From NCBI GenBank assembly GCA_016214995.1, contig JACRML010000031.1, positions 6,453 through 70,452 of the forward strand: DNA of 64,000 bases, in the 5' to 3' direction. The notes under the pieces were generated by a model. It did no database searches. It was not told the origin of the DNA and saw nothing but the letters and a program-made list of their open reading frames with translations. Every line of letters begins with the position of its first letter. The first letter of the stretch is position 1. Position numbers and translations under genes: made by a program. The DNA is from Deltaproteobacteria bacterium. GTDB taxonomy: Bacteria > Desulfobacterota > GWC2-55-46 > UBA9637. Below, piece by piece: positions 22,671 to 57,522 of this stretch.

Positions 22671-22987
22671 ACTGTAATACAAGAGTGGCAGATATTGTAG
22701 AATTTATATCTATTATTTCATGGTAGCATTATTTTATGAGTGATAGACAGAATTGTAGGATGGACTATGCCCACCATCTCTGGCTTCGGTTGGCGCAATC
22801 CATCCTACGGCTATGACAAATAAGGGATAGCCCCCCCCTTCTTCACACCGGCACCATTTTAGTACTCATTGAAGAAATTGTCGAATTCGATTTCAACAGC
22901 ACTATGGTGCCGACCCCCGGTCTGCGTTACCGCTGAAAAATAATCCAGCCTGCCAAACCTACTGTTGTAATAATATCAAACAATCTC

Positions 22988-23040: not shown

Positions 23041-23829
23041 ATGAGCATATACGAAAAAATAGGGTGTCGGATTAAAATGCTTAGGGAAAAGACCGGCATG
23101 AGCCAGGATATGCTGTCACAGAAGATTGGAATATCACGGCCTGCTGTTTCCAAAATAGAGAGCGGTGAGCGGAAAATCTCCGCATACGAGTTGCAAAAGC
23201 TTTCTCATATTTTCCATGTTTCAGTGGACGATTTGTTGAATCCGGTAAAAGAGCCGGAGGTTCATTTGCATAAAGGCAAGGAAGGGAAAACAGCCAGGCC
23301 GCAAATGCGGATTAGCGTGCCGCAGAAGAATCTCCAGAAATTCAAGGAAATTCTGTTGTACATTTTGAATAAGGTCGGGGCCAAAGAGAACATCGGCGAA
23401 ACTGTCATCTATAAACTCCTCTATTTCATAGACTTTGACTTCTATGAAAAATATGAGGAGCAACTGATCGGCGCAACATACATCAAAAACAAATACGGCC
23501 CCACGCCTGTCGAGTTTGCCAAAATCGTAGAGAAAATGATTGAAGGCAAAGAGATAGAGAAGGTCAAAAGCGAATATTTCAATTTTCCGCAGACCAAGTA
23601 TTTGCCTTGTCGGAAGCCTGACCTGGCGAAATTGAAGGCGAACGAGATTGAGGTGATAGACGATGTCCTGAACCGGCTTTCGGAGATGAATGCGAGTCAG
23701 ATAAGCGCCTATTCCCATAGCGATGTTCCATGGGTGACAACGGCGGATGGCGAGGCTATCGAATACGAATCGGTCTTTTACCGCACTTTGCCCTATTCTG
23801 TGCGGGCATATGCGGAAGAGAACGGATGA
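23041..23829 (+). CDS. XRE-family HTH fused to a DUF4065 (SocA/Panacea-type) antitoxin domain
   Basis: N-terminus LREKTGMSQDMLSQKIGISRPAVSKIESGERK. C-terminus KLLYFIDFDFYEKYEEQLIGATYIKNKYGPTP... Confidence 0.75.
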   Translation: MSIYEKIGCRIKMLREKTGMSQDMLSQKIGISRPAVSKIESGERKISAYELQKLSHIFHVSVDDLLNPVKEPEVHLHKGKEGKTARPQMRISVPQKNLQKFKEILLYILNKVGAKENIGETVIYKLLYFIDFDFYEKYEEQLIGATYIKNKYGPTPVEFAKIVEKMIEGKEIEKVKSEYFNFPQTKYLPCRKPDLAKLKANEIEVIDDVLNRLSEMNASQISAYSHSDVPWVTTADGEAIEYESVFYRTLPYSVRAYAEENG

Positions 23830-24074
23830 GTGAGCCATTCTACAGTCCATTCGTTAGGACGCTGTTCAAGAAGATATCTCATGCCCCGGAATTTGAAAAA
23901 GACATGAAGAGGCTTAAGCGATTCTCATCGATAGAAGAGGATTTGCGGTGGAAGGGGATAGATTCAGCAGGGATGGGGAAGGGTAAAGGGGTTGGGGTTG
24001 CGAGGGGGAGGGGAATAGATCAGGCTCGTATTTTCTGTTTTAGCTATAGAATAAGTTGGTACTTTGATATATAG
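23826..24074 (+). pseudogene. Truncated RelE/ParE-like toxin, 3' part replaced by repeat R3a
   Basis: ATGA overlap with the upstream antitoxin. The first 37 or so codons (..FEKDMKRLKRFSSIEEDL) resemble RelE/ParE N-termini. From about 23953 the frame reads through G-rich repeat sequence (GMGKGKGVGVARGRG). Confidence 0.5.
23953..24014 (+). repeat. G-rich post-toxin repeat R3, partial copy R3a
   Basis: Matches the 3' half of R3b and R3c: cagcaggga.ggggaagggtaaaggggttg.ggttgcgaggg. Confidence 0.8.
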
Positions 24075-24080
24075 TGAAAG

Positions 24081-24161
24081 CAATAAATAACTTGTAGGGC
24101 AAGCCTTCAGGCTTGCTTATTTGCAGGGCTAAAGCCCTGCCCTACACCAAGTTATTTATTG
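24081..24161. other. 81-nt three-way-junction palindrome
   Basis: Perfect 14-bp outer stem caataaataacttg/caagttatttattg. 6-bp tagggc/gcccta stem. Two inner hairpins, aagcc..ggctt and cagggc..gccctg. Confidence 0.7.
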
Positions 24162-24209
24162 CCGTTAGTATAGAATAGAGAAAAAATTAATAATGTAGGG
24201 GGGATTTAT

Positions 24210-24395
24210 ATGAGAACCGCGGCACAAAAAGTTAATCCAGAGGATTTTATCCTTTCTGCCCTTTCTCCAGAGGATCGGCTCGATGCGGCATTTGAGGTCG
24301 CTCGTGAGGCGTTCAAAAAGACACGCTTGACAATGAAAGATATTGACAATGCGGTTAAATCGGTAAGGAGAAAGGCTTACGAAAAGAAGAAATAA
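24210..24395 (+). CDS. Small putative antitoxin of the downstream PIN toxin
   Basis: 61 aa. No family firmly recognised. Position and size fit a type II antitoxin. Confidence 0.5.
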   Translation: MRTAAQKVNPEDFILSALSPEDRLDAAFEVAREAFKKTRLTMKDIDNAVKSVRRKAYEKKK

Positions 24396-24414
24396 AGTAG
24401 TCATAGACACAAGC

Positions 24415-24801
24415 GTGCTTATTTCTGCCTACGCCTTTGGTGGAACACCGGAGAAGGCTGTAAAGAAGGCGTTCTCAGAGGCAGACATATATTTAACCCC
24501 CGACCTTTTAAAGGAATACCGTGATGTCCCTTTGGCGCTTGAGGCAGAGGGAAAGATTAACCACCTGCAATTTAAGACCTTGATTTCAGGGATGGCAGCC
24601 GTTGTATCAAGAGCCGAGATTGTAAATCCAAAAAGAAAAATCCTGATATGTAGAGACCCGAAGGACGATATGTTGCTTGACTGTTGCATTGAAGCAAAGG
24701 CAGATTTTCTTGTCACAGGCGATGCTGACCTTCTTAATATCGCAGAATTGCCGTTTAATTTAAGGATAGTAACTCCACTCAAATTTCTCGAAGAAGGGTA
24801 G
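24415..24801 (+). CDS. PIN-family toxin (PIN_3/TIGR00305-like)
   Basis: DPKDDMLLDCCIEAKADFLVTGDADLL is the typical C-terminal PIN_3 motif. The conserved VVIDTSV segment is encoded in frame upstream of the first canonical start (GTG 24415). Confidence 0.75.
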   Translation: MLISAYAFGGTPEKAVKKAFSEADIYLTPDLLKEYRDVPLALEAEGKINHLQFKTLISGMAAVVSRAEIVNPKRKILICRDPKDDMLLDCCIEAKADFLVTGDADLLNIAELPFNLRIVTPLKFLEEG

Positions 24802-24814
24802 TCTATTCCCACCG

Positions 24815-24948
24815 GATGTAAAAACGATGAATGAAGAGGGCAATCGTAGGGTGGGCATTGCCCACCGGATGAGGAAGATAGAAGGGCTGATGGAGAGGTT
24901 CAGCAGGGACGGTGAAGGGTAAAGGGGTTGTGATTGCAAGAGGTGGGG
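24815..24948 (+). repeat. G-rich post-toxin repeat R3b
   Basis: Roughly 85 percent identical by eye to R3c over about 135 bp. Contains the ggtgggcattgcccacc palindrome and a G-run tract. Starts about 13 nt after the PIN stop. Confidence 0.85.
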
Positions 24949-24996
24949 AAATAAATGAGTCCGCTTCTTCAAAAAAAAGCTAAGTGGAGGTATTTG

Positions 24997-25266
24997 ATGA
25001 AAATAGTAAGCGAACACATAGACAAGATTGTAGCAATCGGCAAGCGGTATGGCGCTACCCGTCTGATATTGTTCGGGGGAGTGGTCGCAAGATCGGAAAA
25101 TACAAGAGATATTGATATAGCATGCGATGGCATCCCAGGCTGGAAGCTTTATGAATTTGCAGCAAGACTTGAAGAGGAGCTGCATATTCCTCTCGATGTA
25201 ATGCCGCTCAGCCCTCCGAGTCGTTTTACAAAATACATTGAGATGAAAGGCAAGGCGCTCATATGA
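24997..25266 (+). CDS. Nucleotidyltransferase-domain antitoxin (MntA-like)
   Basis: LILFGGVVARSENTRDIDIA (GG..x..DxD NTase signature). GGAGG lies 6 nt upstream of ATG 24997. ATGA overlap with the HEPN gene. Confidence 0.75.
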   Translation: MKIVSEHIDKIVAIGKRYGATRLILFGGVVARSENTRDIDIACDGIPGWKLYEFAARLEEELHIPLDVMPLSPPSRFTKYIEMKGKALI

Positions 25267-25736
25267 ATCTGAAAGACCTTTGCGAGGAAATTGCCATTGA
25301 GATTGAGCTTCTCGAATCCGTCATCAAAGAAATATCTTCCCTGCGCAACGACTTAACGGAGCGTGAGCCAACTATCAGGGAAAAAACAGCCGCAGGCGCC
25401 TTTATGGCACAATTTTACGGAGGGATTGAAAACATTTTGAAACGGATCAGCTTGTTCCACTCTGTTCCAATGCCTTCCGGCGACAACTGGCACACAGATC
25501 TTTTCCGAAGATTTTGCCAACCATCTTACCAAACCCTGCCTCTATTATTTAAGGAACAACTGGCCTTAGACATGGCCGCATTTCGTAAATTCAGGCATGT
25601 TGTTTATCACGGCTACGGTTTTGAACTTGACTGGGACAGGATGAAAGAAGGGTTGGCAAGAATTGATGATGTATTTAACCGTTTTAAACAGAAACTTAAC
25701 GAATATCTAAATGGGTTAGAAAAACAGAATAAATAG
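25263..25736 (+). CDS. HEPN-domain toxin (HepT-like)
   Basis: 157 aa. Rx4-6H motif in FRKFRHVVYHGYG. Paired with the MNT gene. Confidence 0.7.
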   Translation: MNLKDLCEEIAIEIELLESVIKEISSLRNDLTEREPTIREKTAAGAFMAQFYGGIENILKRISLFHSVPMPSGDNWHTDLFRRFCQPSYQTLPLLFKEQLALDMAAFRKFRHVVYHGYGFELDWDRMKEGLARIDDVFNRFKQKLNEYLNGLEKQNK

Positions 25737-25748
25737 CCGATACCGTCA

Positions 25749-25890
25749 AATGCGGAAACGATGATGGAAGAGGGCAAAAAGTTGTAGGGTGGGCTATGCC
25801 CACAGGATGAGAGAGATAGAAGGGCTGAGGGGAGAGGTTCCGCAGGGACGGGGAAGGGTAAGGGGGTTGGGATTGCGAGGGTGGAGGGGG
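25749..25890 (+). repeat. G-rich post-toxin repeat R3c
   Basis: Homologous to R3b. Starts about 13 nt after the HEPN stop. G-runs ggggaagggtaagggggttgggattgcgagggtggaggggg. Confidence 0.85.
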
Positions 25891-26017
25891 ATTTTATAAT
25901 TTCATACATGGATAAACGAGGCGACTAATGCAAATTTGAAGGTGATTGAAAGACTGATAAAACACTCATCAAAGCAATGAGATAAAGGCTGCAATAGCTA
26001 TTGTTTTAATATAAAAT

Positions 26018-29000
26018 ATGCCTGAACAAATGGATACTACCTGCAAAAAACCTCAGCCTGCTTTACTTGAAGATGTCTGGATAACATCAGGCATTTTTTC
26101 AAACCATTATCTATTAGAACGTCTGCCGCAGGCTGGAGCAAAAATCTGGCATAAAGATGAGGATGTACTGCCAGTATATAAAACCATTCAGGAATTATAC
26201 ACGAAAAATATTGTAGGTTTGAGAAGAGGTAATGAGGCAAATACCGAAAGGCGATTTATTGATAAGGTTTTTAATGAATTGGGTTTTGGCTATCTTAATC
26301 AGGATAAAATACCTGAAGCAGAGCGCAGACAGGTGCCTGATTACTTTCTTTACTCTACCCCCGAAGGTGCAGACAATGCCTTCAAACTCTCTCCGCATAA
26401 AAAATACAAACTTGCAATCTCAATTGTAGAATCAAAACGGTGGGATCATAATTTAGACCAGCCGTCATCAGGCAAGGGCAAGGCAACTAAAGGCGGGTAT
26501 CCGCATCAGCAGATAAGGGATTATCTAAACGAATCCGAACACATAAAATGGGGAATCCTTACCAATGGCAAGGAGTGGAGGCTCTATTCCAAAGAGGGGC
26601 GGTCAAGCAAATTTTTTGAGATAGACCTTGAGGCATGTCTTGAAGACCTTCAGAAGTTCAAATATTTCTATCTCCTTTTCAGCCCAAATGCCTTCATAAA
26701 GGAAAGTTCCGGCAGATGTCTCCTTGACAATATTTTTGACGAATCACTTAAGTTTCAGGAAGATGTTGAAAAAGACCTAAGAGTAAAGGTCTTTAACTGT
26801 GTTGAACGGCTTGGGTACGGCTTCCTGTCCAGAGAGGAAAACCGTTTATCTGAAAAAGACCTTGAATCAATATACTATCACAGCCTTATCCTTTTATATA
26901 GAATACTCTTTGTGCTTAATGCAGAGGCAAGAGACCTCCTTCCAACTAACCCACAAACAAATTACTACAAGCATTACGGCATCCAGAGGATAAAGGATAG
27001 GGTTAGGCATGGGAAAGGAGAATTTATAAGTGCCAAAACAGTTTTGTATGATGATTTATCAGCCCTTTTTCATCTGATAAACGGCAGCAATGAAAAACTC
27101 AATAGAGATATGAACATACCAAGATATAACGGCGGTCTTTTTGACCCTGATAAATATAAATTCCTTGAAGAAAAGAAGGCAGGAGACGATGTTCTTTCAG
27201 AGATAATTTATGAACTCTCCAACCGCACTGATAAAAATGGAGATGTCCATAGCATTGACTACAAAGGGCTTGGAGAGAGACATCTTGGAACAGTTTATGA
27301 AGGTTTGCTTGAACATAAGTTTAGTTTCGATAATGGTAAAGTAGTTCTTGAAAATGACAAAGGCGAACGAAAGGCTACAGGGGCATACTATACACCTGAC
27401 CATATTGTTAAGTATATCGTTGAAAATACGCTAGTGCCAATTATAAAGAAAATTGATGAAGAACTTTACCCCACTTTGAAAAAGGGGGGCGTGGGGGGAT
27501 TTTCAAAAGACGACTTTTTTGCCCAGGAAGTGCTGAACCTTAATATCTGCGACCCTGCGATGGGTTCAGGGCATTTCCTTGTCGAGGCTGTTCAATATCT
27601 TGCTGATGAGATTGCCTATCATCCCACAACACAGTTAAAGACGTCAAAAGGCGAAACAGAAGATGAAATTAACTATTGGAAGCGTAAGGTTGTAGAGTCC
27701 TGCATTTATGGAGTTGACATAAAAGAACTTGCAGTTGAACTTGCAAAACTCTCCTTATGGCTTAAGACAGTTGACAAAAGCCAGCCGCTAAATTTCTTAG
27801 ACCATCATCTCAGATGCGGCAATTCGCTTATCGGCGCAAGGATAGCCGACTTAAATTATCTGCCGCGGTCAAAGGGAAAGCAGAAAAAGACAGAGGAGAA
27901 TGAAAGCCAGTTGGTGCTTTTTGATAGAACCCGATTTAAAGAAGACATTACAACAGTAATAAAAGGATTTTATTCAATAGAAGAAATGCCGAGCGAAAAA
28001 ATTTCGGATATAAAGGCAAAGGAAAAGACATTCAAAAAATTGACCGAAGAACTGAATAGATACAGAGAAATTACAGACCTCTGGACAAGTTTGTTTTTTG
28101 GAAACAGCCTTGAACAAGAACAAGAGGCATTTGAAAACATTATACAAGAGCAGGATAAATTCCAGATGGATATATTCGGCTCAGAAACTAAAATCTCCCC
28201 CAAAAAGAAGTCCAAGGCAGGCATATCCAACCAGATTTACAATTTTATAGTTAGTTCACTACAAAGTCCTAACGGCAAAACCCAAGTTCCAAAACTTGAC
28301 TTGCTTCTTGGGAAGTCTGTATCCATTGCAAGGGAAAAGAAATTCTTTCACTGGGAACTTGCATTTCCTGAAGTATTCTTCAATGAAGACGGAAGTCCAA
28401 AAGAGAATCCGGGGTTTGATTGCGTAATAGGAAATCCGCCGTATGATGTTTTATCAGAACTTGAGCAGGAGAGGGATGTAGAGCATGAGAAAGAATTTTT
28501 CTTGCATCAGATGTCGTATAGACCTGCCATTGGCAGCAAACTTAATTTTTATCGCCTCTTTAGTGTCACATCTTTAAATTTACTCAAAAGCAAAGGTATG
28601 CATGGTTTTATCGTTCCTATGGCTTTATTAGCAGATAAACAAGCAAAGCCCTTGAGAGAATTTATACTTAAAAAGAACTGCCTGCAAAAGATAGAAGCAT
28701 TTCCCCAAAAAGATGACCCTGTAAACAGGGTATTTTATGAGGCAAAGTTATCAACCTGCATATATATCCTTTCTAAGCAAAAGCCATTTTCGTTTGATGT
28801 TAGAATCCATCCCGGAAAAGACATCTTGGAAACCTCTACTCGTTTAACCATAATGCCATCTCAAATTGAAGAATTTGACAAAGAAAATTTAAGTATTCCA
28901 TGTTATCCAAATATGACCGCAGAGGATTTTAAACTTGCCTTGAAATTAAACGAAGTTTCTAACGGAATTACACTCGGATACTTTGCGCCATCACAGCAGG

Positions 29001-29959
29001 GCGAGGTTAATCTTACAGCACACTCTGAATATTTGACAAATTCAGAAAAAGGACAAATTATTTTACGAGGTGCTCATATAAATCGTTATGAGTTTAAGGA
29101 AGAACCAAAACAAGGGAGTCCGATGTATCTTGATATTCAGCGATTCCTTGATGCACATGGAGAAGATACAAAAGCATTTGACCACAGGCACATACGCATC
29201 GGTTATCAAAGAGGGGCAGCAATAGACAATTGGCGCAGAATTATTGCAACTGTCATAGAAAAAGATAATTTCTGCTCCGATACAATCAACTATATTGTCA
29301 ATCCTAAAGAATATAGTCTGTTTTCCATTCTTGCATTATTAAATTCATCGCTATGGGAGTGGAGATTCAGGCTTACAAGCACAAACAATCATGTAAATTC
29401 TTATGAAATAGACTCAATGCCAATGCCAGTTATCTCCTTCACCACTCCCCCCAAAAGGGCGGAAGAATTTTTTAAGGATGCTGTTGAACTGTATGATGAT
29501 TCAAAATATGTTGATATTTTCAAATGGGCGGATTATGCATTGGATTTGGGCAGGAATGATACCATTCACGACTTCCTTGCCTATCTTGCAGAGCAGATAA
29601 TTGAGTTAAACAAGGCGAAGAATGAAGAGAGCAAAGGCTTTCTCAAATGGCTTGAAAGGGAAATCGGTACAGGAATTGATGCCTTAACAAACAAAACTGC
29701 AATCAAAGAATATCACGAACACGGCTTTGATCATCTCCTTGAAGTCCTCAAAAAGAACATAAACATAATCTCAATTGACCCTTCAGACCGAAAGAAACAG
29801 GAACTCGTTGAAAAGCATTTCACAAAAAGCATGTCAGTCCTTGAGCCTCTGAAAGAAAAAATTAAGGCGGCCGATAATCTGATAGACCAGATTATTTATA
29901 AGTTGTATGGATTGACGGAGGAGGAGATTGAGATTGTGGAGGGGAAAGTGACTTTATGA
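26018..29959 (+). CDS. Type IIG/IIL-like fused restriction endonuclease and N6-adenine DNA methyltransferase (Eco57I family)
   Basis: 1313 aa. N-terminal PD-ExK (VPDYFLY...IVESKRW), GAYYTPDHIV, SAM motif I DPAMGSGHFLVEA, motif IV GNPPY. TaqI-C-like TRD (LLNSSLWEWRF). C-terminal YKLYGLTEEEIEIVEG. Confidence 0.85.
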   Translation: MPEQMDTTCKKPQPALLEDVWITSGIFSNHYLLERLPQAGAKIWHKDEDVLPVYKTIQELYTKNIVGLRRGNEANTERRFIDKVFNELGFGYLNQDKIPEAERRQVPDYFLYSTPEGADNAFKLSPHKKYKLAISIVESKRWDHNLDQPSSGKGKATKGGYPHQQIRDYLNESEHIKWGILTNGKEWRLYSKEGRSSKFFEIDLEACLEDLQKFKYFYLLFSPNAFIKESSGRCLLDNIFDESLKFQEDVEKDLRVKVFNCVERLGYGFLSREENRLSEKDLESIYYHSLILLYRILFVLNAEARDLLPTNPQTNYYKHYGIQRIKDRVRHGKGEFISAKTVLYDDLSALFHLINGSNEKLNRDMNIPRYNGGLFDPDKYKFLEEKKAGDDVLSEIIYELSNRTDKNGDVHSIDYKGLGERHLGTVYEGLLEHKFSFDNGKVVLENDKGERKATGAYYTPDHIVKYIVENTLVPIIKKIDEELYPTLKKGGVGGFSKDDFFAQEVLNLNICDPAMGSGHFLVEAVQYLADEIAYHPTTQLKTSKGETEDEINYWKRKVVESCIYGVDIKELAVELAKLSLWLKTVDKSQPLNFLDHHLRCGNSLIGARIADLNYLPRSKGKQKKTEENESQLVLFDRTRFKEDITTVIKGFYSIEEMPSEKISDIKAKEKTFKKLTEELNRYREITDLWTSLFFGNSLEQEQEAFENIIQEQDKFQMDIFGSETKISPKKKSKAGISNQIYNFIVSSLQSPNGKTQVPKLDLLLGKSVSIAREKKFFHWELAFPEVFFNEDGSPKENPGFDCVIGNPPYDVLSELEQERDVEHEKEFFLHQMSYRPAIGSKLNFYRLFSVTSLNLLKSKGMHGFIVPMALLADKQAKPLREFILKKNCLQKIEAFPQKDDPVNRVFYEAKLSTCIYILSKQKPFSFDVRIHPGKDILETSTRLTIMPSQIEEFDKENLSIPCYPNMTAEDFKLALKLNEVSNGITLGYFAPSQQGEVNLTAHSEYLTNSEKGQIILRGAHINRYEFKEEPKQGSPMYLDIQRFLDAHGEDTKAFDHRHIRIGYQRGAAIDNWRRIIATVIEKDNFCSDTINYIVNPKEYSLFSILALLNSSLWEWRFRLTSTNNHVNSYEIDSMPMPVISFTTPPKRAEEFFKDAVELYDDSKYVDIFKWADYALDLGRNDTIHDFLAYLAEQIIELNKAKNEESKGFLKWLEREIGTGIDALTNKTAIKEYHEHGFDHLLEVLKKNINIISIDPSDRKKQELVEKHFTKSMSVLEPLKEKIKAADNLIDQIIYKLYGLTEEEIEIVEGKVTL

Positions 29960-32481
29960 ATTTTGAACGACCGCAACCCTTACATAAAAATATTGAAGTC
30001 AAAGCAACCAATAGGCCCATTAAAATTGCTTACCTTGTTCCATATGAAGAAAGTATAACTACACATAGGATACTTGATGCGGTTTTCCATGAATCATATA
30101 CCCGCTGGGGTGGTGTTCATACATTAATTATTCCTACTAATAGCAACAGTTTTTTGTTGGAAGAATACGATAAGTGGCTGCAATTTTATGACCCTGATTT
30201 TATTTATACATATGTTGATTTAGAACAGTCAGTGATTGCAAAAATAGATCACGCTTGTTGTCCTATCGCATTCATAAGTCACAAAAAATCAGAAATAACC
30301 CGATGGCAGGATTACATACCCGACTGGGGGGTATATTTCAAATCGATTTCATCGCTAACAACAATACATAGCCCATATGCTGGTTATCGTAGCCTACTAC
30401 CGTGGACTGAAAAAGAACAGAAAATAACACTTATTACCCAATACAAAGAAATTTCTGAAGAGCGTTTTATCGCTGATAACTTTGGAACTGCCTTTAATTT
30501 ACATATGTATCCTAACCCTATACAAGGGCTTTTTGATACTCTCTGTTTAGTGCCAAATGATTTGGGTAAGCATATGCATGTAGGTACTACAAAAACCACC
30601 TCAATTATAGATATACTTTCTCAAATAAGCGGCAAAAAAGCTATTATGATTGCAAAACTATCAATGGCTTACAGCAAATCTATATGCTGTGTGCAATCTT
30701 ATAGGTGGGATAGTTTCAACCTCTTTGTTGGAGATACTTGTCTTGATCGAATTCATTTCTGGAATGCAAGAAGTTTTTCTCCGGATTATATCAACGTGCC
30801 AGCCGCACTTATTGTAAAAAAGATACAGATAGAAGAATCAGATTTTATTACTCAGCTAGGCTTGTATCTAAATAGTCATAATTTTTTAGGGCAACATACT
30901 GGCCAGGCTTCAGTAGCAATAAGGAGCTTTAGCCACAACATTGAAGAACTCAAGCCGATACAAGAGAGATTACAAAAATGCACCTTCAATCGTGTGATTT
31001 TAACAAATGAATATAATAACCCTGCAATTCCATCTACCGACGATTTCAAACACTATTATCATAGTGGGTCTGCAGATGTAACGACATTTAAGTTAAGCGA
31101 AACTATTAATAAAATACAGGCGAAGGAGCCCGAACATTTTGCGTTCACTCCACCACGATTTAGAGGAATAAATGAAGGTCAGTGGATTGTCGAGCTTGAA
31201 ATTGAACGCCACAATAGCCTTTCTCGTGTTGTCAATGTTGCTGATACTTGGATGCCGCCACGGCGTCATAAAGCAGTAAGAGCATTTACTAAAAATTTGG
31301 GGAGGATTTCAAAAAACCATAGAATTTCTCTTATACCATCAACAGATAACCATCCATTATTGAGTAGCCCAATTAAAAAGGACTACTCATACTCCCTCTT
31401 TTTGCCGGATGATGAAACTTTTTTTCGATGGTTCGCCATCGATGCGGTTAATTATCTAAAAGAAGATTTACGGTCTTCACTTTCCTATGACCTATACAAT
31501 GGTTTGTCTGTCTCCGATAAAGGGCAAAATTTAAGAGGTGTAATTTCTATGTTTGGCAATCTTTCTGATGCATCTGAATGCTTGACCAATAAGTTTTGGC
31601 GTCAGATTATAAGAGCAAACAAGAGCAAGGTGGATGATGAAAAAGATGCCCAAAGACCAGATAATATTTTCAGTTGGGATAAATTGTTCTCTTTTATACC
31701 AAATGACCATAAATTTAAAGAGCAGCTACGGAAAAAATTACGCATTGGAAACAGGTTTAAAATACATGATTACTTGGTTGCAGACTTCAATGACGCGTTG
31801 GAATTTCTGATTAACAAAAAAGTTTTCTATCAGGTGCATCAGTGGAGGTGTTCATATTGCGGGCATACAAATACGCTTACCTTTGATCATATTAAAAGAA
31901 CAAATAATTGTGAGATTTGTGATAAGGAATATTTTGCACCGATTGATATTGAGTGGAAGTATAAACTTAATGACTTTGTATATAAATCATTATGTGAGCG
32001 TAACGGACTGACTGTTTTGTGGGCGTTGGGTCATTTACAAGAACGGGATGTGCATAGCAGTTTTTATTACCTTCCAGAAGTTAATTTGTTTTTAGAACAT
32101 AATAATTCAGAGAAAAAGCATGAAATAGATATTTTATGCATGATAGGTGGAAAGTTTTATGCTGTAGAAGCTAAATTTAGTTCAACCGGTTTTACTAAGA
32201 AACATGATGAGATTGAAAAGTTCATTAAGAAAATCTCATTAATCAGACCCGATGTCGCTCTATTAGCATTTGAACAGTATTGTGAACCTGAAGCTGATAC
32301 GGAGTCTGCCAAGAAGGATTTGAAAGGAGTGGTTGCAGATATATCTCAGAAAATAGGGGAGCAAATAAAAATTGAAACGGTAGTTGCATCTGATTTCGAA
32401 GAATTTAATGAGTATCCTGTTGATTTAGGTTGTTGGGGCAAACGTGTTTTAAAGATGCTTTATAAACTCGACAGCAAATAA
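29956..32481 (+). CDS. Uncharacterised 841-aa protein with a C-terminal zinc ribbon and PD-(D/E)xK-like nuclease signature
   Basis: ATGA overlap with the methyltransferase stop. CSYC-x16-CEIC at aa 632-655. HEIDILCMIGGKFYAVEAK at aa 722-740 (E-x-D...E-x-K). No Walker A or other motif recognised in aa 1-630. Confidence 0.8.
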   Translation: MNFERPQPLHKNIEVKATNRPIKIAYLVPYEESITTHRILDAVFHESYTRWGGVHTLIIPTNSNSFLLEEYDKWLQFYDPDFIYTYVDLEQSVIAKIDHACCPIAFISHKKSEITRWQDYIPDWGVYFKSISSLTTIHSPYAGYRSLLPWTEKEQKITLITQYKEISEERFIADNFGTAFNLHMYPNPIQGLFDTLCLVPNDLGKHMHVGTTKTTSIIDILSQISGKKAIMIAKLSMAYSKSICCVQSYRWDSFNLFVGDTCLDRIHFWNARSFSPDYINVPAALIVKKIQIEESDFITQLGLYLNSHNFLGQHTGQASVAIRSFSHNIEELKPIQERLQKCTFNRVILTNEYNNPAIPSTDDFKHYYHSGSADVTTFKLSETINKIQAKEPEHFAFTPPRFRGINEGQWIVELEIERHNSLSRVVNVADTWMPPRRHKAVRAFTKNLGRISKNHRISLIPSTDNHPLLSSPIKKDYSYSLFLPDDETFFRWFAIDAVNYLKEDLRSSLSYDLYNGLSVSDKGQNLRGVISMFGNLSDASECLTNKFWRQIIRANKSKVDDEKDAQRPDNIFSWDKLFSFIPNDHKFKEQLRKKLRIGNRFKIHDYLVADFNDALEFLINKKVFYQVHQWRCSYCGHTNTLTFDHIKRTNNCEICDKEYFAPIDIEWKYKLNDFVYKSLCERNGLTVLWALGHLQERDVHSSFYYLPEVNLFLEHNNSEKKHEIDILCMIGGKFYAVEAKFSSTGFTKKHDEIEKFIKKISLIRPDVALLAFEQYCEPEADTESAKKDLKGVVADISQKIGEQIKIETVVASDFEEFNEYPVDLGCWGKRVLKMLYKLDSK

Positions 32482-32561
32482 AAAACATTATTTTTTAAGA
32501 TGATACAATAAAAAAGAGCACATCGTTCTTCAGGCAGAGGGCGGGAGAGTGATGAGAATAA

Positions 32562-32954
32562 TTGACCAAAAAAACTCAAAAACTTTTAGATGAGTTAAGA
32601 GTCTTGCCTGCTGAAACCGAATGGGTATGGTTTAATAGGAAGTTGAGAAATGAGCGGCATTTCCAGATTTATAACTTTGATGACGGTCAACCGATTGAGC
32701 CTGACTTTGTTCTATTTCTCAAAAAGAAAGATTCGGATATTTCACTGCACTATCAAGTGTTCATTGAACCGAAAGGTGAGCACCTTTTAAAATATGACGA
32801 ATGGAAAGAGAACTTTTTAAAATCATTGAAAAAGAAGCATCAGATAAATATATTATGGAAATCAAAAAAATACACTGTATGGGGAATGCCTTTCTATAAT
32901 GAGGCGTTAAAGAAAACCGAATTTGAAGATGAATTCAGGGCTGCACTGTTATAG
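32562..32954 (+). pseudogene. Remnant of the C-terminal nuclease domain of a type III-restriction-like helicase/endonuclease
   Basis: 130 aa with a TTG start. W.WFNRK...F.I.Y...G..IEPDFVLFL...QVFIEPKGEHL is the PD-ExK tail normally found at the end of roughly 900-aa ResIII helicases. No helicase part is present. Confidence 0.5.
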
Positions 32955-33090
32955 GATAATGATGAAAAACCAGCCGCAACCCTTAACCATCCAGTCTGCC
33001 AAAACCGCCCACTAAAGGGCGCTCCTCGACAGGTTGGTTATGGGCTTTATGGGTTGACAAAGGAAGAGATAAGTATTGAAAACTACCCAT
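32955..33090 (+). pseudogene. Relic of a methyltransferase C-terminus
   Basis: Open frame ...APRQVVGYGLYGLTKEEISIE... mirrors the YKLYGLTEEEIEIVEG ending of the intact enzyme. No start and no upstream domain. Confidence 0.4.
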
Positions 33091-55104: not shown

Positions 55105-57522
55105 TCATATCATCTCCTTTTTAATAAGCCTTTTCATCTTTTCAACCGCCTCAAGTGCATCCTTTGCATAACCGTTCGCGCCTATCCTGTCTGCAAATTC
55201 CTGGTTCACCACCGCGCCTCCAACCATGGTCAAAACAGATACACCATGCTCTTTAAGCTTTTTAATAACATTATCCATTTCCATAACAGTTGTTGTCATC
55301 AAAGCTGAAAGACCAACTGCATCTACTTTATTTTTTATTGCCTCTGCTATGATTTTACCGGCAGGGACATTTTTTCCCAAATCAATGACTTCAAAACCAT
55401 GATTTTCCAATAGTGTGGATACAATATTTTTTCCGATATCATGAATATCGCCTTCAACAGTTGCCATCAAAACCTTGCCCATGCTTTGCGCTTTTTCCCC
55501 TTTAAACTCTTTTTTCAACCTGTCAAACGCCTTTTTCATGGTATCGGCAGAGAGCATAACCTGCGGCAGAAAGTAAATATTTTTATTAAACAATCGTCCA
55601 ACTTCTTCAAGTCCAGGTATGAGTCCCGCATTGCTTATCTTCAATGGATCCCATCCATGCTTCAAAGCCTCTTCAACCAATGAAACAATCCCTTCCTCAT
55701 CGCCGTTGATAATCGCATTCTTCAGCTTTTCATCAATTGTTTTAGGTTCTTTTTTTTCTTCTGACTTCTGACTTCTGACTTCTGACTTCTGGCCGTATCT
55801 CCTGATATATCTCTCTGCTCTCAAGTCATGGCCTGTCAGCACAATTGCGGCATGATATGCATCCATCATCAGACTATTATGCGGATTTATAATAGCAGCG
55901 TCAAGACCCGCCTCAATTGCCATTGTTAGAAAATTTGCATTTATTGCCTCCCTGTTCGGAAGACCGAATGAGATGTTGCTTACCCCAAGTATCGTGGAGA
56001 CTCCGAGTTTTTCCTTGACCATCCTAATTGCCTTCAAAGTCTCCCGTGCGGATTTCTGGTCTGCGCTCACTGTCATTGCAAGACAATCTATCACAACATC
56101 GGATTTTGAAAGGCCACATTCTAAAGCCCGCTTTAAAATTATCTCCGCAACGCAAAACCTGCCTTCTGTGGTCGGCGGAATGCCTTTATCATCCAGCGTC
56201 AGGCCGAGCACAGCTGCTCCGTATTTTTTTGCAAGAGGAAGGATTGTGCTTAATTTCTTTTCCTCTCCGCTTACTGAGTTTATCAACACCTTCCCGTCAA
56301 CTGCCTTTAAACCTGTTTCTAAGGCTTCAAGGCTTGAGGAGTCAAGAACTATGGGAAGCGGGCAGTTTTCATTGACTGCAAATACAGCCATCTGCATTGA
56401 TGCGGGTTCGTCTATCCCAGGCACCCCGACATTTACATCTAATATATGAGCGCCTACATCAGCCTGAGATTTTGCCTCTTTGCGGATGATAGAGGTCTTT
56501 TTATCTTTAATTTCCTGCTGGAGAAGTTTTTTGCCAGTCGGATTTATTCTTTCGCCTACAATTACAGGCGGCTGGGCGCCGCCAAATGATATATATCCGC
56601 TGCGGCTCGCAAGCCTGGTTTGGTGGGCATAGCCCACCCTACGACCTCCTGACTTCTGACTTCTAACTTCTGACTTCATTGCCTTAATATGCTCAGGTGT
56701 TGTGCCGCAGCAGCCGCCGATTATCTTGACGCCTGCGTCCAAAAGTTTAGGTACATACTTTGCCATCTCGGAAGGGCTGGCGGGAAATATGGTTTTGCCG
56801 TCTTTGAGATACGGTATACCTGCATTGGGTTGGGCGATTAAAGGCAGGTTAGTAACCTTGCTCATCGCAATAATCGCCTTGTAGATTCCTTCTATGCCAA
56901 GACTGCAGTTTGCGCCAATAACATCAGCGCCAAGACCCTCTGCAACTACGGCAAACACCTCTGGCGGAGTGCCAAGAACAGTCCTCATGGTCTCATCAAA
57001 TGTCATGGTTGCCGCTACCGGCAGGCCAGATGCCTTTGCAGCAATGATTGCCGCCTTCATCTCCCTTATATCCATCATCGTCTCAATGATGATTAAATCC
57101 ACGCCGCCGTCTTTTAGCGCACCAACCTGCTCTGAAAATATATCCACTGCCTCATCAAATGACAGGTCACCCACAGGCTCCAAAAACCTGCCGGTTGGCC
57201 CGAGTCCGCCTGCAACAAATTTATCTTTACCGGCTGACTCTCTTGCGTTTTTCGCTGCATTGAGATTTATTTCATGGAGTTTGTTTTCAAAATTATATTC
57301 CTTTAGCTTGGTTCTATTGGCGCCAAATGTGCATGTTGTAACAACATCAGAACCCGCATTTATATATCCTTTGTGAACTGTCTTTATCATCTCAGGATTT
57401 GTGATATTAAGCTCATCAGGGCAGCCGCCTGGCTTCAATCCAAGCCTCTGAAGCATTGTGCCGGTAGCGCCGTCAAAGAGGATGGGACGTTCATTTAATA
57501 TTTTTAAAAATTTGCTTTGCAT
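55105..57522 (-). CDS. metH: Methionine synthase (Hcy-MT, pterin-binding and B12-binding domains; no C-terminal activation domain)
   Basis: 805 aa. GGCCGTTPEHI, GERINPTG, and the DxHxxG B12 motif GDIHDIGKNIV. Two in-frame repeat inserts. Confidence 0.92.
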   Translation of the reverse strand: MQSKFLKILNERPILFDGATGTMLQRLGLKPGGCPDELNITNPEMIKTVHKGYINAGSDVVTTCTFGANRTKLKEYNFENKLHEINLNAAKNARESAGKDKFVAGGLGPTGRFLEPVGDLSFDEAVDIFSEQVGALKDGGVDLIIIETMMDIREMKAAIIAAKASGLPVAATMTFDETMRTVLGTPPEVFAVVAEGLGADVIGANCSLGIEGIYKAIIAMSKVTNLPLIAQPNAGIPYLKDGKTIFPASPSEMAKYVPKLLDAGVKIIGGCCGTTPEHIKAMKSEVRSQKSGGRRVGYAHQTRLASRSGYISFGGAQPPVIVGERINPTGKKLLQQEIKDKKTSIIRKEAKSQADVGAHILDVNVGVPGIDEPASMQMAVFAVNENCPLPIVLDSSSLEALETGLKAVDGKVLINSVSGEEKKLSTILPLAKKYGAAVLGLTLDDKGIPPTTEGRFCVAEIILKRALECGLSKSDVVIDCLAMTVSADQKSARETLKAIRMVKEKLGVSTILGVSNISFGLPNREAINANFLTMAIEAGLDAAIINPHNSLMMDAYHAAIVLTGHDLRAERYIRRYGQKSEVRSQKSEEKKEPKTIDEKLKNAIINGDEEGIVSLVEEALKHGWDPLKISNAGLIPGLEEVGRLFNKNIYFLPQVMLSADTMKKAFDRLKKEFKGEKAQSMGKVLMATVEGDIHDIGKNIVSTLLENHGFEVIDLGKNVPAGKIIAEAIKNKVDAVGLSALMTTTVMEMDNVIKKLKEHGVSVLTMVGGAVVNQEFADRIGANGYAKDALEAVEKMKRLIKKEMI
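55758..55790. repeat. In-frame ttctgac heptamer array inside metH
   Basis: cttctgac followed by ttctgac repeats. Translated as QKSEVRSQKSE in the linker before the B12 cap domain. Confidence 0.9.
56600..56680. repeat. In-frame mosaic repeat inside metH (palindrome module plus heptamer array)
   Basis: ggtgggcatagcccaccctac plus ctgacttctgacttctaacttctgac. Translated as SEVRSQKSGGRRVGYAHQTRLA. Confidence 0.85.

Follow-up and report, generated by a model that had tools for sequence, protein, structure and literature searches.

An unannotated family of predicted PD-(D/E)xK nucleases with a member encoded in the variable slot behind a type IIG restriction-modification gene

We analyzed a 64,000-nucleotide stretch of contig JACRML010000031.1 from a Deltaproteobacteria bacterium (GenBank assembly GCA_016214995.1, positions 6,453 to 70,452, forward strand), referred to below as the window. 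It contains two large open reading frames (ORFs), A and B, which overlap by 4 nt and of which the former encodes a single-chain type IIG restriction-modification enzyme and the latter a protein of an unannotated family. An earlier interpretation of the same DNA, made without database searches and termed here the sequence-only reading, had proposed that both genes form a coupled two-gene defence module. The comparison of the two families across genomes points to a different arrangement, in which A and B are probably separately functioning genes on one transcript and B would be an autonomous nuclease, most plausibly a single-gene defence, that is parked behind A. The A-B operon is real but lineage-specific. 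That B is independent of A is very likely, and a role of B in defence is on balance slightly favored. The coordinates of the ORFs and of their overlap are exactly those given in the sequence-only reading.

26018-29959, + strand: ORF A, single-chain type IIG restriction-modification enzyme of 1313 amino acids (Pfam, PADLOC)
29956-32481, + strand: ORF B, 841 amino acids, unannotated protein family (homologue searches)
29956-29959, + strand: ATGA, overlap of the A stop and the B start (read from the sequence)
29921-29946, + strand: "core" of the A 3' end, GAGGAGATTGAGATTGTGGAGGGGAA, coding for EEIEIVEGK and holding the Shine-Dalgarno (SD)-like GGAGGGG (homology breakpoint with respect to the loci of A relatives)

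The junction at 29950-29959 reads gactttATGA, in which the B ATG (29956-29958) overlaps the A TGA (29957-29959). The SD-like sequence GGAGGGG at 29938-29944 is located inside the A coding sequence and serves B. A and B share a promoter-like site (TTGCGA-16-TATAAT, 25873-25900) that lies within the third of a set of upstream direct repeats described further below, and neither a terminator nor a strong promoter was detected between the two genes. The GC content over the pair is 0.36-0.38, as compared to 0.42-0.45 in the surroundings, which fits acquired DNA.

Genes found behind relatives of A

We compared the window with six further locus types (loci are designated by L numbers) that encode enzymes with 77-92% identity to A. 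The genes that follow A in these loci are the following.

L050 / L054 (92% / 84% identity to A): 347-amino-acid PDC-M41A-like protein (2e-39) and a radical SAM protein
L051 (87% identity to A): prokaryotic Argonaute (pAgo, 1.8e-115) and Aga_SIR2 (3e-74)
L052 / L053 (83% identity to A): 242-amino-acid protein of no known family
L055 (80% identity to A): three proteins of no known family and a radical SAM protein
L056 / L057 (79% identity to A): 235-amino-acid protein of no known family, then HTH-M78/DUF4411

There was no B homologue after A in any of the six locus types. The blastn analysis revealed that the DNA identity between the window and L050, L051, L052, L055, and L056 passes through A and ends at 29925-29946, in the last ~12 codons of A. 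On the left side, the homology boundary was located 46-106 nt before the A ATG in L050 and L054 (the homology with L054 begins at 25912) and just inside A in the other loci. Since the identity ends in the last codons of A and the cargo differs, A is a conserved unit and the position after it a variable slot. In all loci of A relatives, the cargo is encoded on the same strand as A, and its first gene overlaps the A stop by 1-4 nt in L050, L052, and L054. This slot is prone to swapping, and its occupants include several known defence systems or candidates for such. The radical SAM genes of L050 and L054 have 87-88% DNA identity to that of L055, despite differing preceding genes.

The cargo is located at 11959-15254 in L051, where it consists of a short pAgo and SIR2, at 4295-6039 in L050, at 4132-5948 in L054, and at 11986-14447 in L055.

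Genes found next to homologues of B

To view the pair from the side of B, we assembled 47 distinct B loci from reference genomes, metagenomes, contigs encoding individual homologues, and plasmids, and restricted the linkage count to the 33 loci with at least 1.2 kb upstream of B. An A-like gene, as defined by a tblastn match with A at E ≤ 1e-3, was present upstream of B in 0 of these 33 other loci. The all-against-all comparison of ~700 flanking ORFs did not reveal any neighbor family common to more than two B loci. The sequence-only reading had made conserved linkage of B to a methyltransferase gene the property on which the proposed module would stand or fall; B was found not to lie generally 3' of such a gene. 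In a census of 133 neighbor ORFs from 30 B loci with Pfam and PADLOC, the matches were heterogeneous and included PIN (three cases), integrase (two cases), radical SAM (two cases), and many housekeeping proteins, along with few defence matches (PDC-M11, RmrA). Methyltransferases were represented by a single type II and a single type III enzyme. No recurrent partner of B emerged from this census, and neither CRISPR nor cyclase genes were present beside B in the loci seen.

In a Rhodocyclaceae locus (L012, 6967-10041), a 1024-amino-acid Trans_reg_C/AAA_16/TPR protein is encoded on the same strand as the B homologue and its gene overlaps the start of the latter; here, too, a member of the B family is tightly paired, in one lineage, with a large unrelated gene. 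On the Burkholderia glumae plasmid NZ_CP100298.1 (L059, 2426-10502), a distant B homologue (24% identity) directly follows three tandem tyrosine recombinase genes and a small ORF, an arrangement that we take to resemble the cargo of "recombinase in trio" elements. The possibility that B is itself a mobile element with target-site duplications was rejected: no flanking direct repeat exceeded the shuffled controls at 27 other B loci, and the repeat that flanks B in L010 derives from the A 3' end.

Natural loss of A

The three closest B homologues with available context (L010/L011 and L060) share 71-72% protein identity with B, and L010 has ~82% DNA identity. Upstream of B, L010/L011 have sequence with homology to the region that precedes A in L056 and then the decayed remainder of an A 3' end, gggaggagattgagttgagggggaaatag, whereas A itself is gone. 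In L060, about 35 decayed codons of the A N terminus (..WITAGIFSSHCLL.., as compared to ..WITSGIFSNHYLL.. in A) are joined to an A-end-like sequence, ..ggggggctgactttATG, which is followed by B.

L010, 9500-10000: A deletion scar
L060, 4470-4667: A deletion scar

B is a full-length ORF in both A-deleted loci, with 885 amino acids in L010 and 875 amino acids in L060, and the flanks differ among the window, L010, and L060. Judged from these alignments, the A-B operon was ancestral to the B clade formed by the window, L010, and L060, and A was deleted twice independently while B was retained. The presence of intact B next to two different A deletions indicates that the maintenance of B does not need A. 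Furthermore, loss of the A methyltransferase is tolerated with B present, which argues against the notion that methylation by A shields the host from B.

The family and the predicted architecture of B

We retrieved 193 close homologues of B of ~830 amino acids, all of which are unnamed or annotated as hypothetical and none of which has a Pfam domain. A profile search of a representative library resulted in 1,421 clusters (50% identity) at E ≤ 1e-3 and 400 clusters at 1e-30; nearly all have 800-870 amino acids and align from end to end. The hosts comprise Nitrospirota, Desulfobacterota, Beta- and Gammaproteobacteria, and one Methanobacterium metagenome bin, a patchy spread that is typical of accessory genes. 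In viral data, IMG/VR provided two 65-residue matches and no full-length relative, and INPHARED none. Only three matches were obtained on plasmids, where the genes are annotated as "hypothetical protein" and stand alone. No relevant literature on the family was found by keyword or accession number.

The view of the sequence-only reading that B could not be assigned to any described defence component was upheld. Neither B as a single sequence nor its profile matched Pfam, NCBIfam, or the sequences of the Protein Data Bank (PDB), and no family was named when 27 close and 10 distant members were compared with Pfam, NCBIfam, and PADLOC. PADLOC returned weak matches of B with CARF-associated PD-(D/E)xK models, confined to residues 581-790 (Csx1 "ARF+Nuclease", 2.5e-6; CARF_PDDEXK), and weak treble-clef or zinc-ribbon Pfam matches were noted for several family members. 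The domains predicted from models and alignments are listed below.

29956-31395, + strand: N-terminal module, residues 1-480, alpha/beta lobes and a beta-rich region (AlphaFold2 model)
31411-31815, + strand: helical linker, residues 486-620 (secondary structure of the model)
31843-31935, + strand: zinc ribbon, C632-x2-C635 ... C652-x2-C655 (invariant cysteines)
31972-32355, + strand: PD-(D/E)xK nuclease domain, P707-E-V, D725, E738-x-K740 (Foldseek, PADLOC, BFVD, conservation)

The AlphaFold model of full-length B (predicted local distance difference test [pLDDT] of 77, predicted template modeling score [pTM] of 0.77) is composed of alpha/beta lobes at residues ~13-350, a beta-rich part at 375-460, a helical part at 486-620, the zinc ribbon at 624-671, and an alpha/beta nuclease at 673-810. 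In the Foldseek search against the PDB, the C-terminal part alone found matches, namely, VC1899 (1xmx, 1.7e-3, probability 0.99), Can2 (8bao, 8.2e-3), 7bdv, EcoT38I (7e8r), McrC (6ut7_G), and Can1, with BamHI and OkrAI as further structural neighbors; the probabilities for VC1899, Can2, and EcoT38I were between 0.96 and 0.99. A search of viral models in BFVD gave weak restriction-endonuclease-like matches. The separate AlphaFold2 model of residues 1-480 is of higher confidence (pLDDT of 86, pTM of 0.89), and its search against the PDB did not provide anything at E ≤ 1e-3, the best match having 9e-3, a probability of 0.25, and a TM score below 0.2. No PDB match corresponded to a CARF fold in this N-terminal model, nor was an SRA, EVE, YTH, or other reader fold detected in the module. 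The structure and PADLOC comparisons that the sequence-only reading had called for connect B with no known system, and the nuclease domain is the only part to match the PDB.

Conservation is consistent with this architecture. Six residues (C632, C635, C652, C655, D725, and E738) do not vary among members at only 21-27% identity, and K740 is conserved in at least 90%. The PD-(D/E)xK module and the zinc ribbon recognized in the sequence-only reading are borne out by these residues and by the Foldseek matches. Of the catalytic set that it had named, E723/D725/K740, the latter two residues hold, whereas E723 is conserved in close relatives only, and D725/E738/K740 is the better assignment. In the N-terminal part, G53, D79, D81, G177, W269, N270, and W410 are likewise invariant at 21-27% identity, and the family alignment shows E46, Y48, R50, W51, G53, D79, D81, D174, N175, G177, W269, and N270 as invariant residues of the module; the SDKGxNxRG sequence at residues 520-528 is also invariant. 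B thus consists of a zinc ribbon and a PD-(D/E)xK nuclease domain that follow a large, conserved N-terminal module without structural precedent. In kind, it is predicted to be a single-chain nuclease of the known PD-(D/E)xK type, in which the new part would be the N-terminal module.

ORF A is a type IIG enzyme

The Pfam analysis of A gave matches with Eco57I (7e-30), N6_Mtase (1e-16), and MmeI_Mtase (2.4e-8), and those with HSDR_N, MmeI_N, and TaqI_C were all below the gathering scores. The REase_MTase_IIG models of PADLOC align to residues 55-458 plus the methyltransferase core. The top PADLOC score was obtained with DrmMI (3.3e-103), which covers residues 440-866 only, corresponding to the methyltransferase core. 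The PDB sequences matched were solely the adenine-specific DNA methyltransferase 7lni and M.TaqI, at residues 798-924.

26231-26662, + strand: N-terminal PD-ExK nuclease region, residues 72-215, P107-D108 ... E138-x-K140 (conservation; weak HSDR_N and MmeI_N matches)
27359-28702, + strand: gamma-class N6-adenine methyltransferase core, residues 448-895, with GAYYTP, DPAMGSGHFL, and NPPY (Pfam, alignment)
29060-29422, + strand: putative target-recognition domain, residues 1015-1135 (sub-threshold TaqI_C match)

A has 4044 homologues, the closest of which, at 77-92% identity, are from Nitrospirota metagenome bins. In an alignment of 19 relatives, down to 41% identity, the motifs P107-D108...K140, DPAxGSGHFL (512-521), and N806-P-P-Y809 are invariant, as is the C-terminal helix ..LIDQIVYKLYGLTEEEIxIVEG. 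The PD-ExK, GAYYTP, DPAMGSGHFL, and GNPPY motifs quoted in the sequence-only reading are present in the translation, and the core ones are those conserved in the 19 relatives. Its description of A as a self-sufficient type IIG fusion agrees with the Pfam and PADLOC matches and the invariant motifs, and its TaqI-C-like recognition domain can be retained as putative: the TaqI_C score is 22.3 bits, below the cut-off of 26.5 bits, and PF12950 is present in several close homologues. By these features, A is an ordinary, apparently intact, self-sufficient enzyme of the Eco57I/MmeI type. There is nothing unusual about A itself; the unusual part is what comes after it.

Membership of A in the DISARM (defence island system associated with restriction-modification) system was rejected, as DrmA, DrmB (DUF1998), DrmC (phospholipase D [PLD]), DrmD, and DrmE are absent from the large ORFs at 12-40 kb of the window (Pfam). 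Membership in the bacteriophage exclusion (BREX) system was rejected as well, since there is no PglZ or BrxC in this interval and the NCBIfam PglX model gave 64.5 bits at a cut-off of 500. The same Pfam analysis found no genes for PglZ, BrxC-type ATPases, helicases, or PLD proteins there, in agreement with the sequence-only reading.

Two further observations concern this family. In a subset of homologues with 1416-1508 amino acids (P0136-P0140, P0149, P0151, P0153, P0155, P0157, P0159, P0222, P0229, P0233, and P0238), the usual ..YGLTEEEIxIVEG end is replaced by a C-terminal Fic domain (PF02661), resulting in type IIG-Fic fusions. In the window, the sequence TATAAAAT at 26010-26017 abuts the annotated ATG of A, and the homologous position is retained upstream of B in L060; translation of A may in fact begin at the second methionine (codon 5), or the mRNA may have almost no leader.

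Interpretation of the gene pair

If A and B act separately, A would mark host DNA and cut unmarked DNA without needing a partner. The C-terminal domain of B would cut nucleic acid, and its first ~620 residues would most likely, by analogy with other regulated nucleases, restrain or aim this activity until a cue is met. The final ~26 nt of A would supply a ribosome-binding site, and the ATGA junction a start codon, to whatever cargo lands in the slot. The evidence that we consider to point to a defence role of B is that the slot holds pAgo with SIR2 and PDC-M41 in relatives, that the family is patchily distributed and occurs on plasmids and close to mobile-element genes, and that its nuclease resembles immune effectors and restriction enzymes.

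Several observations weigh against this interpretation. Outside the slot behind A, the neighbors of B homologues are mostly housekeeping genes, and only a handful of the 133 are defence genes, so that guilt by association is weak for the B family overall. The N-terminal 480 residues contain no recognizable sensor fold, and the idea of a regulated effector is drawn from analogy. A true two-gene system would likewise be expected to have the 4-nt overlap and a common promoter-like site. The genomes that lost A were binned from metagenomes and may have another copy of it elsewhere. Finally, the differing flanks of the window, L010, and L060 imply that the A-B operon has moved as a unit between genomes at least once.

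Among the alternatives, B may be non-immune, either as a nuclease that serves a mobile element (in maintenance, addiction, or competition between elements) or as an accessory of DNA repair or recombination, and its place behind A would then be accidental. Homologues that are encoded beside the three tandem tyrosine recombinases of the Burkholderia glumae plasmid, near a resolvase and a primase-polymerase, and near integrases and transposases are in line with such a function, as are the many other neighbors with housekeeping functions and the lack of a match with any defence model. We nevertheless regard it as unlikely, because bona fide defence systems occupy the same slot in A relatives, the family was present in none of the phages or viruses searched, and B was kept under the upstream region of A after the loss of A, which suggests host-side selection.

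As a variant of the autonomous nuclease, B might be a modification-dependent (type IV-like) or a sequence- or structure-directed restriction endonuclease, the N-terminal module of which reads foreign DNA. The structural neighbors EcoT38I, McrC, BamHI, and OkrAI and the viral "restriction endonuclease" models are compatible with this idea, and B is a large single chain, without ATPase motif or partner, in which N-terminal domains precede the PD-(D/E)xK nuclease. This is the layout of several type IV enzymes. However, the search of the N-terminal module for reader folds (SRA, EVE, YTH, or others) was negative, the best fold matches are the ligand-activated Card1/Can2 nucleases, and the coexistence with an N6-methyladenine (m6A) methyltransferase rules out m6A at A sites as the target. 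This variant therefore appears quite unlikely.

A functional two-component module, in which A modifies and B is the sensing or cutting part, or in which B is a PrrC/RloC-like back-up nuclease that A keeps latent and that is released when a phage disables A, would account for the ATGA overlap with an SD sequence inside A, the lack of a terminator or strong promoter between the genes, the similarly low GC content of both genes, and the inheritance of the operon as a unit in the window/L010/L060 clade, but is decidedly improbable and, as proposed in the sequence-only reading, does not withstand the comparison: none of the 33 B loci encodes an A-like protein, there is no recurrent neighbor, all six locus types of A relatives carry other cargo, A was lost twice with B intact, and the conserved nuclease motif of A leaves no need for a cutter.

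The comparison with known systems is consistent with two separate genes. A has the whole single-chain layout of the Eco57I/MmeI type IIG enzymes, with PD-ExK nuclease, methyltransferase, putative TaqI_C-like region, and ..YGLTEEEIxIVEG helix, and its family differs from these by the changing downstream cargo, often with overlapping start codons. B resembles Card1, Can2, and VC1899 in its C-terminal domain, for which these are the best fold matches, and perhaps also in the concept of a regulatory N terminus that precedes the nuclease. It differs from them in that no CARF domain was detected, in having more than twice their length, in the zinc ribbon before the nuclease, and in the lack of CRISPR or cyclase neighbors in the loci seen. 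Shedu (SduA, DUF4263), a single-gene defence, likewise combines an N-terminal module and a C-terminal PD-(D/E)xK domain in one chain, and B is usually encoded as a solo gene. However, the N-terminal sensor domains of Shedu are variable, whereas the module of B is conserved across the family, and neither B nor its relatives matched Shedu/DUF4263 in Pfam or PADLOC at all thresholds used. The gene for PrrC lies within the EcoprrI locus, and PrrC binds physically to the EcoprrI enzyme. The resemblance of B to PrrC/EcoprrI and RloC consists in the tight linkage and co-transcription of a nuclease gene with one for restriction-modification; unlike these, B is solo in 33 of the 33 other informative loci, survives the deletion of A, and has no anticodon-nuclease or ATPase domain.

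These data indicate that an overlapping stop and start of two large defence-type genes does not alone denote a two-component system, and that co-location can be told apart from co-function by comparing the same slot in close relatives and by using natural losses of one partner. Should B be a defence gene, a widespread unannotated family (~1,400 clusters) would join the single-gene nuclease defences, and its N-terminal module without structural precedent could show how infection is sensed in a new manner. A search for new defence genes can practically start from the slot behind this type IIG family, where relatives already have pAgo with SIR2 and a candidate system of PADLOC.

Repeats at the cargo boundaries

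The core of the A 3' end recurs behind the cargo. We identified a repeat of 60-75 nt, the core of which matches the final 26 nt of A exactly and which has a conserved left arm of its own (CACATTATCCGTCAGGCAGAGGGCG); its consensus is CACATTATCCGTCAGGCAGAGGGCGGGAGATTGAGATTGTGGAGGGGAAA and its pattern CAYATYATCC..GCAGAGGGCRGGAGATTGAGATTGTGGAGGGG. With an nhmmer profile, 11 copies were found in 5 loci, all on the + strand and after cargo blocks. The window contains a decayed copy behind B. Repeat and core sites are located as follows.

Window, 29921-29946: core at the A 3' end
Window, 32499-32574, + strand: decayed repeat, tcaggcagagggcgggagagtgatgag... (nhmmer E = 5.8e-12, with a profile of six copies including this one)
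L010, 12671-12748: repeat
L052, 12628-12698, 12726-12788, and 13160-13229: repeats
L055, 14441-14517 and 15093-15141: repeats
L056, 14445-14518, 15117-15152, 15616-15657, and 16120-16190: repeats

The copies follow B in L010, as in the window, and the 242-amino-acid gene in L052; others are found behind successive small cassettes (PemK toxin-antitoxin [TA], DUF3024, HTH_25, DUF433) in L052, L055, and L056. L055 and L056 have A in common and unrelated intervening cargo, and their sequences are common again from the repeat on (90% identity). In the alignment, the left arm looks like the ..QII.. codons of A with a 10-nt deletion, and the repeats were apparently derived from the A 3' end.

RNAalifold did not predict any consensus base pairs across the 11 copies, and Rfam identified no family at 20-36 kb of the window, except for a sub-threshold isrK match. 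No tyrosine-recombinase motif was detected in the window and no Phage_integrase match in the annotated loci of A relatives; RYYYAAC/GTTRRRY ends were not noticed when the copies were read. The repeat could be a scar left by recurrent homologous exchange among the 3' ends of A-type genes or may itself be a recombination site, and its presence at the cargo boundaries hints at a specific mechanism of cargo exchange.

Similar to integron arrays and clusters of attC sites lacking integron integrases (CALINs), these loci have same-strand, apparently promoterless cassettes, each followed by a short conserved repeat, with the newest-looking cargo beside a fixed "platform" gene. They differ in that the window and the loci of A relatives have no integrase, that an attC-type hairpin is missing, and that the core is the coding 3' end of a type IIG gene. 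It would be a long shot that both extensions of these findings hold, namely, that B founds a new family of single-protein immune nucleases with a new 480-residue sensor and that the ~26-nt end of A and the 60-75-nt repeats are the recombination sites of an undescribed cassette-capture platform. If true, promoterless defence genes would be installed in translational coupling behind a restriction-modification gene, in an integron-like manner with no integrase in cis and no attC hairpin.

Genomic setting of the pair

The sequence-only reading had placed the pair between three TA modules and the wreck of a restriction-modification system, and this setting was recovered.

23041-25736, + strand: three TA-type cassettes, namely, HTH-SocA/Panacea (23041-23829), PIN (24415-24801), and putative MNT (24955-25266) with HepT (25263-25736) (Pfam)
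23898-24025, 24816-24961, and 25750-25898, + strand: direct repeats of ~130-150 nt, each after a TA cassette, the third ending just upstream of the A unit
32562-32954, + strand: truncated type III Res-like helicase-nuclease remnant, C-terminal ~100 amino acids only (tblastn)
33030-33080, + strand: short remnant coding for ..GYGLYGLTKEEISIEN, similar to a methyltransferase C terminus (read from the sequence; compare the ..YKLYGLTEEEIxIVEG C termini of the A family)

The 130-amino-acid ORF at 32562-32954 has no Pfam match; in tblastn it shares 36-50% identity with the C termini of genes annotated as "DEAD/DEAH box helicase family protein" in 235 plasmid records. This ORF and the remnant at 33030-33080, which are ~80 nt apart, look like the wreckage of earlier restriction-modification genes. 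A gene for a YgjP-like metallopeptidase is located downstream of B. No tRNA gene was found at the edges of the island, which is flanked by a UbiE-type methyltransferase gene and dinB and lies within housekeeping genes.

The upstream direct repeats are spaced by 936 and 939 nt and have additional matches at 22748-22808 and 56620-56649. They were not detected in the other loci compared. The possibility that they belong to the same family as the repeats behind the cargo was rejected, since nhmmer revealed no significant similarity. They contain the palindrome GGGTGGGCWWTGCCCAC, for which 8 matches were counted in the window as compared to 0.3 expected, and their G-rich tail supplies an SD or promoter-like site to the next gene.

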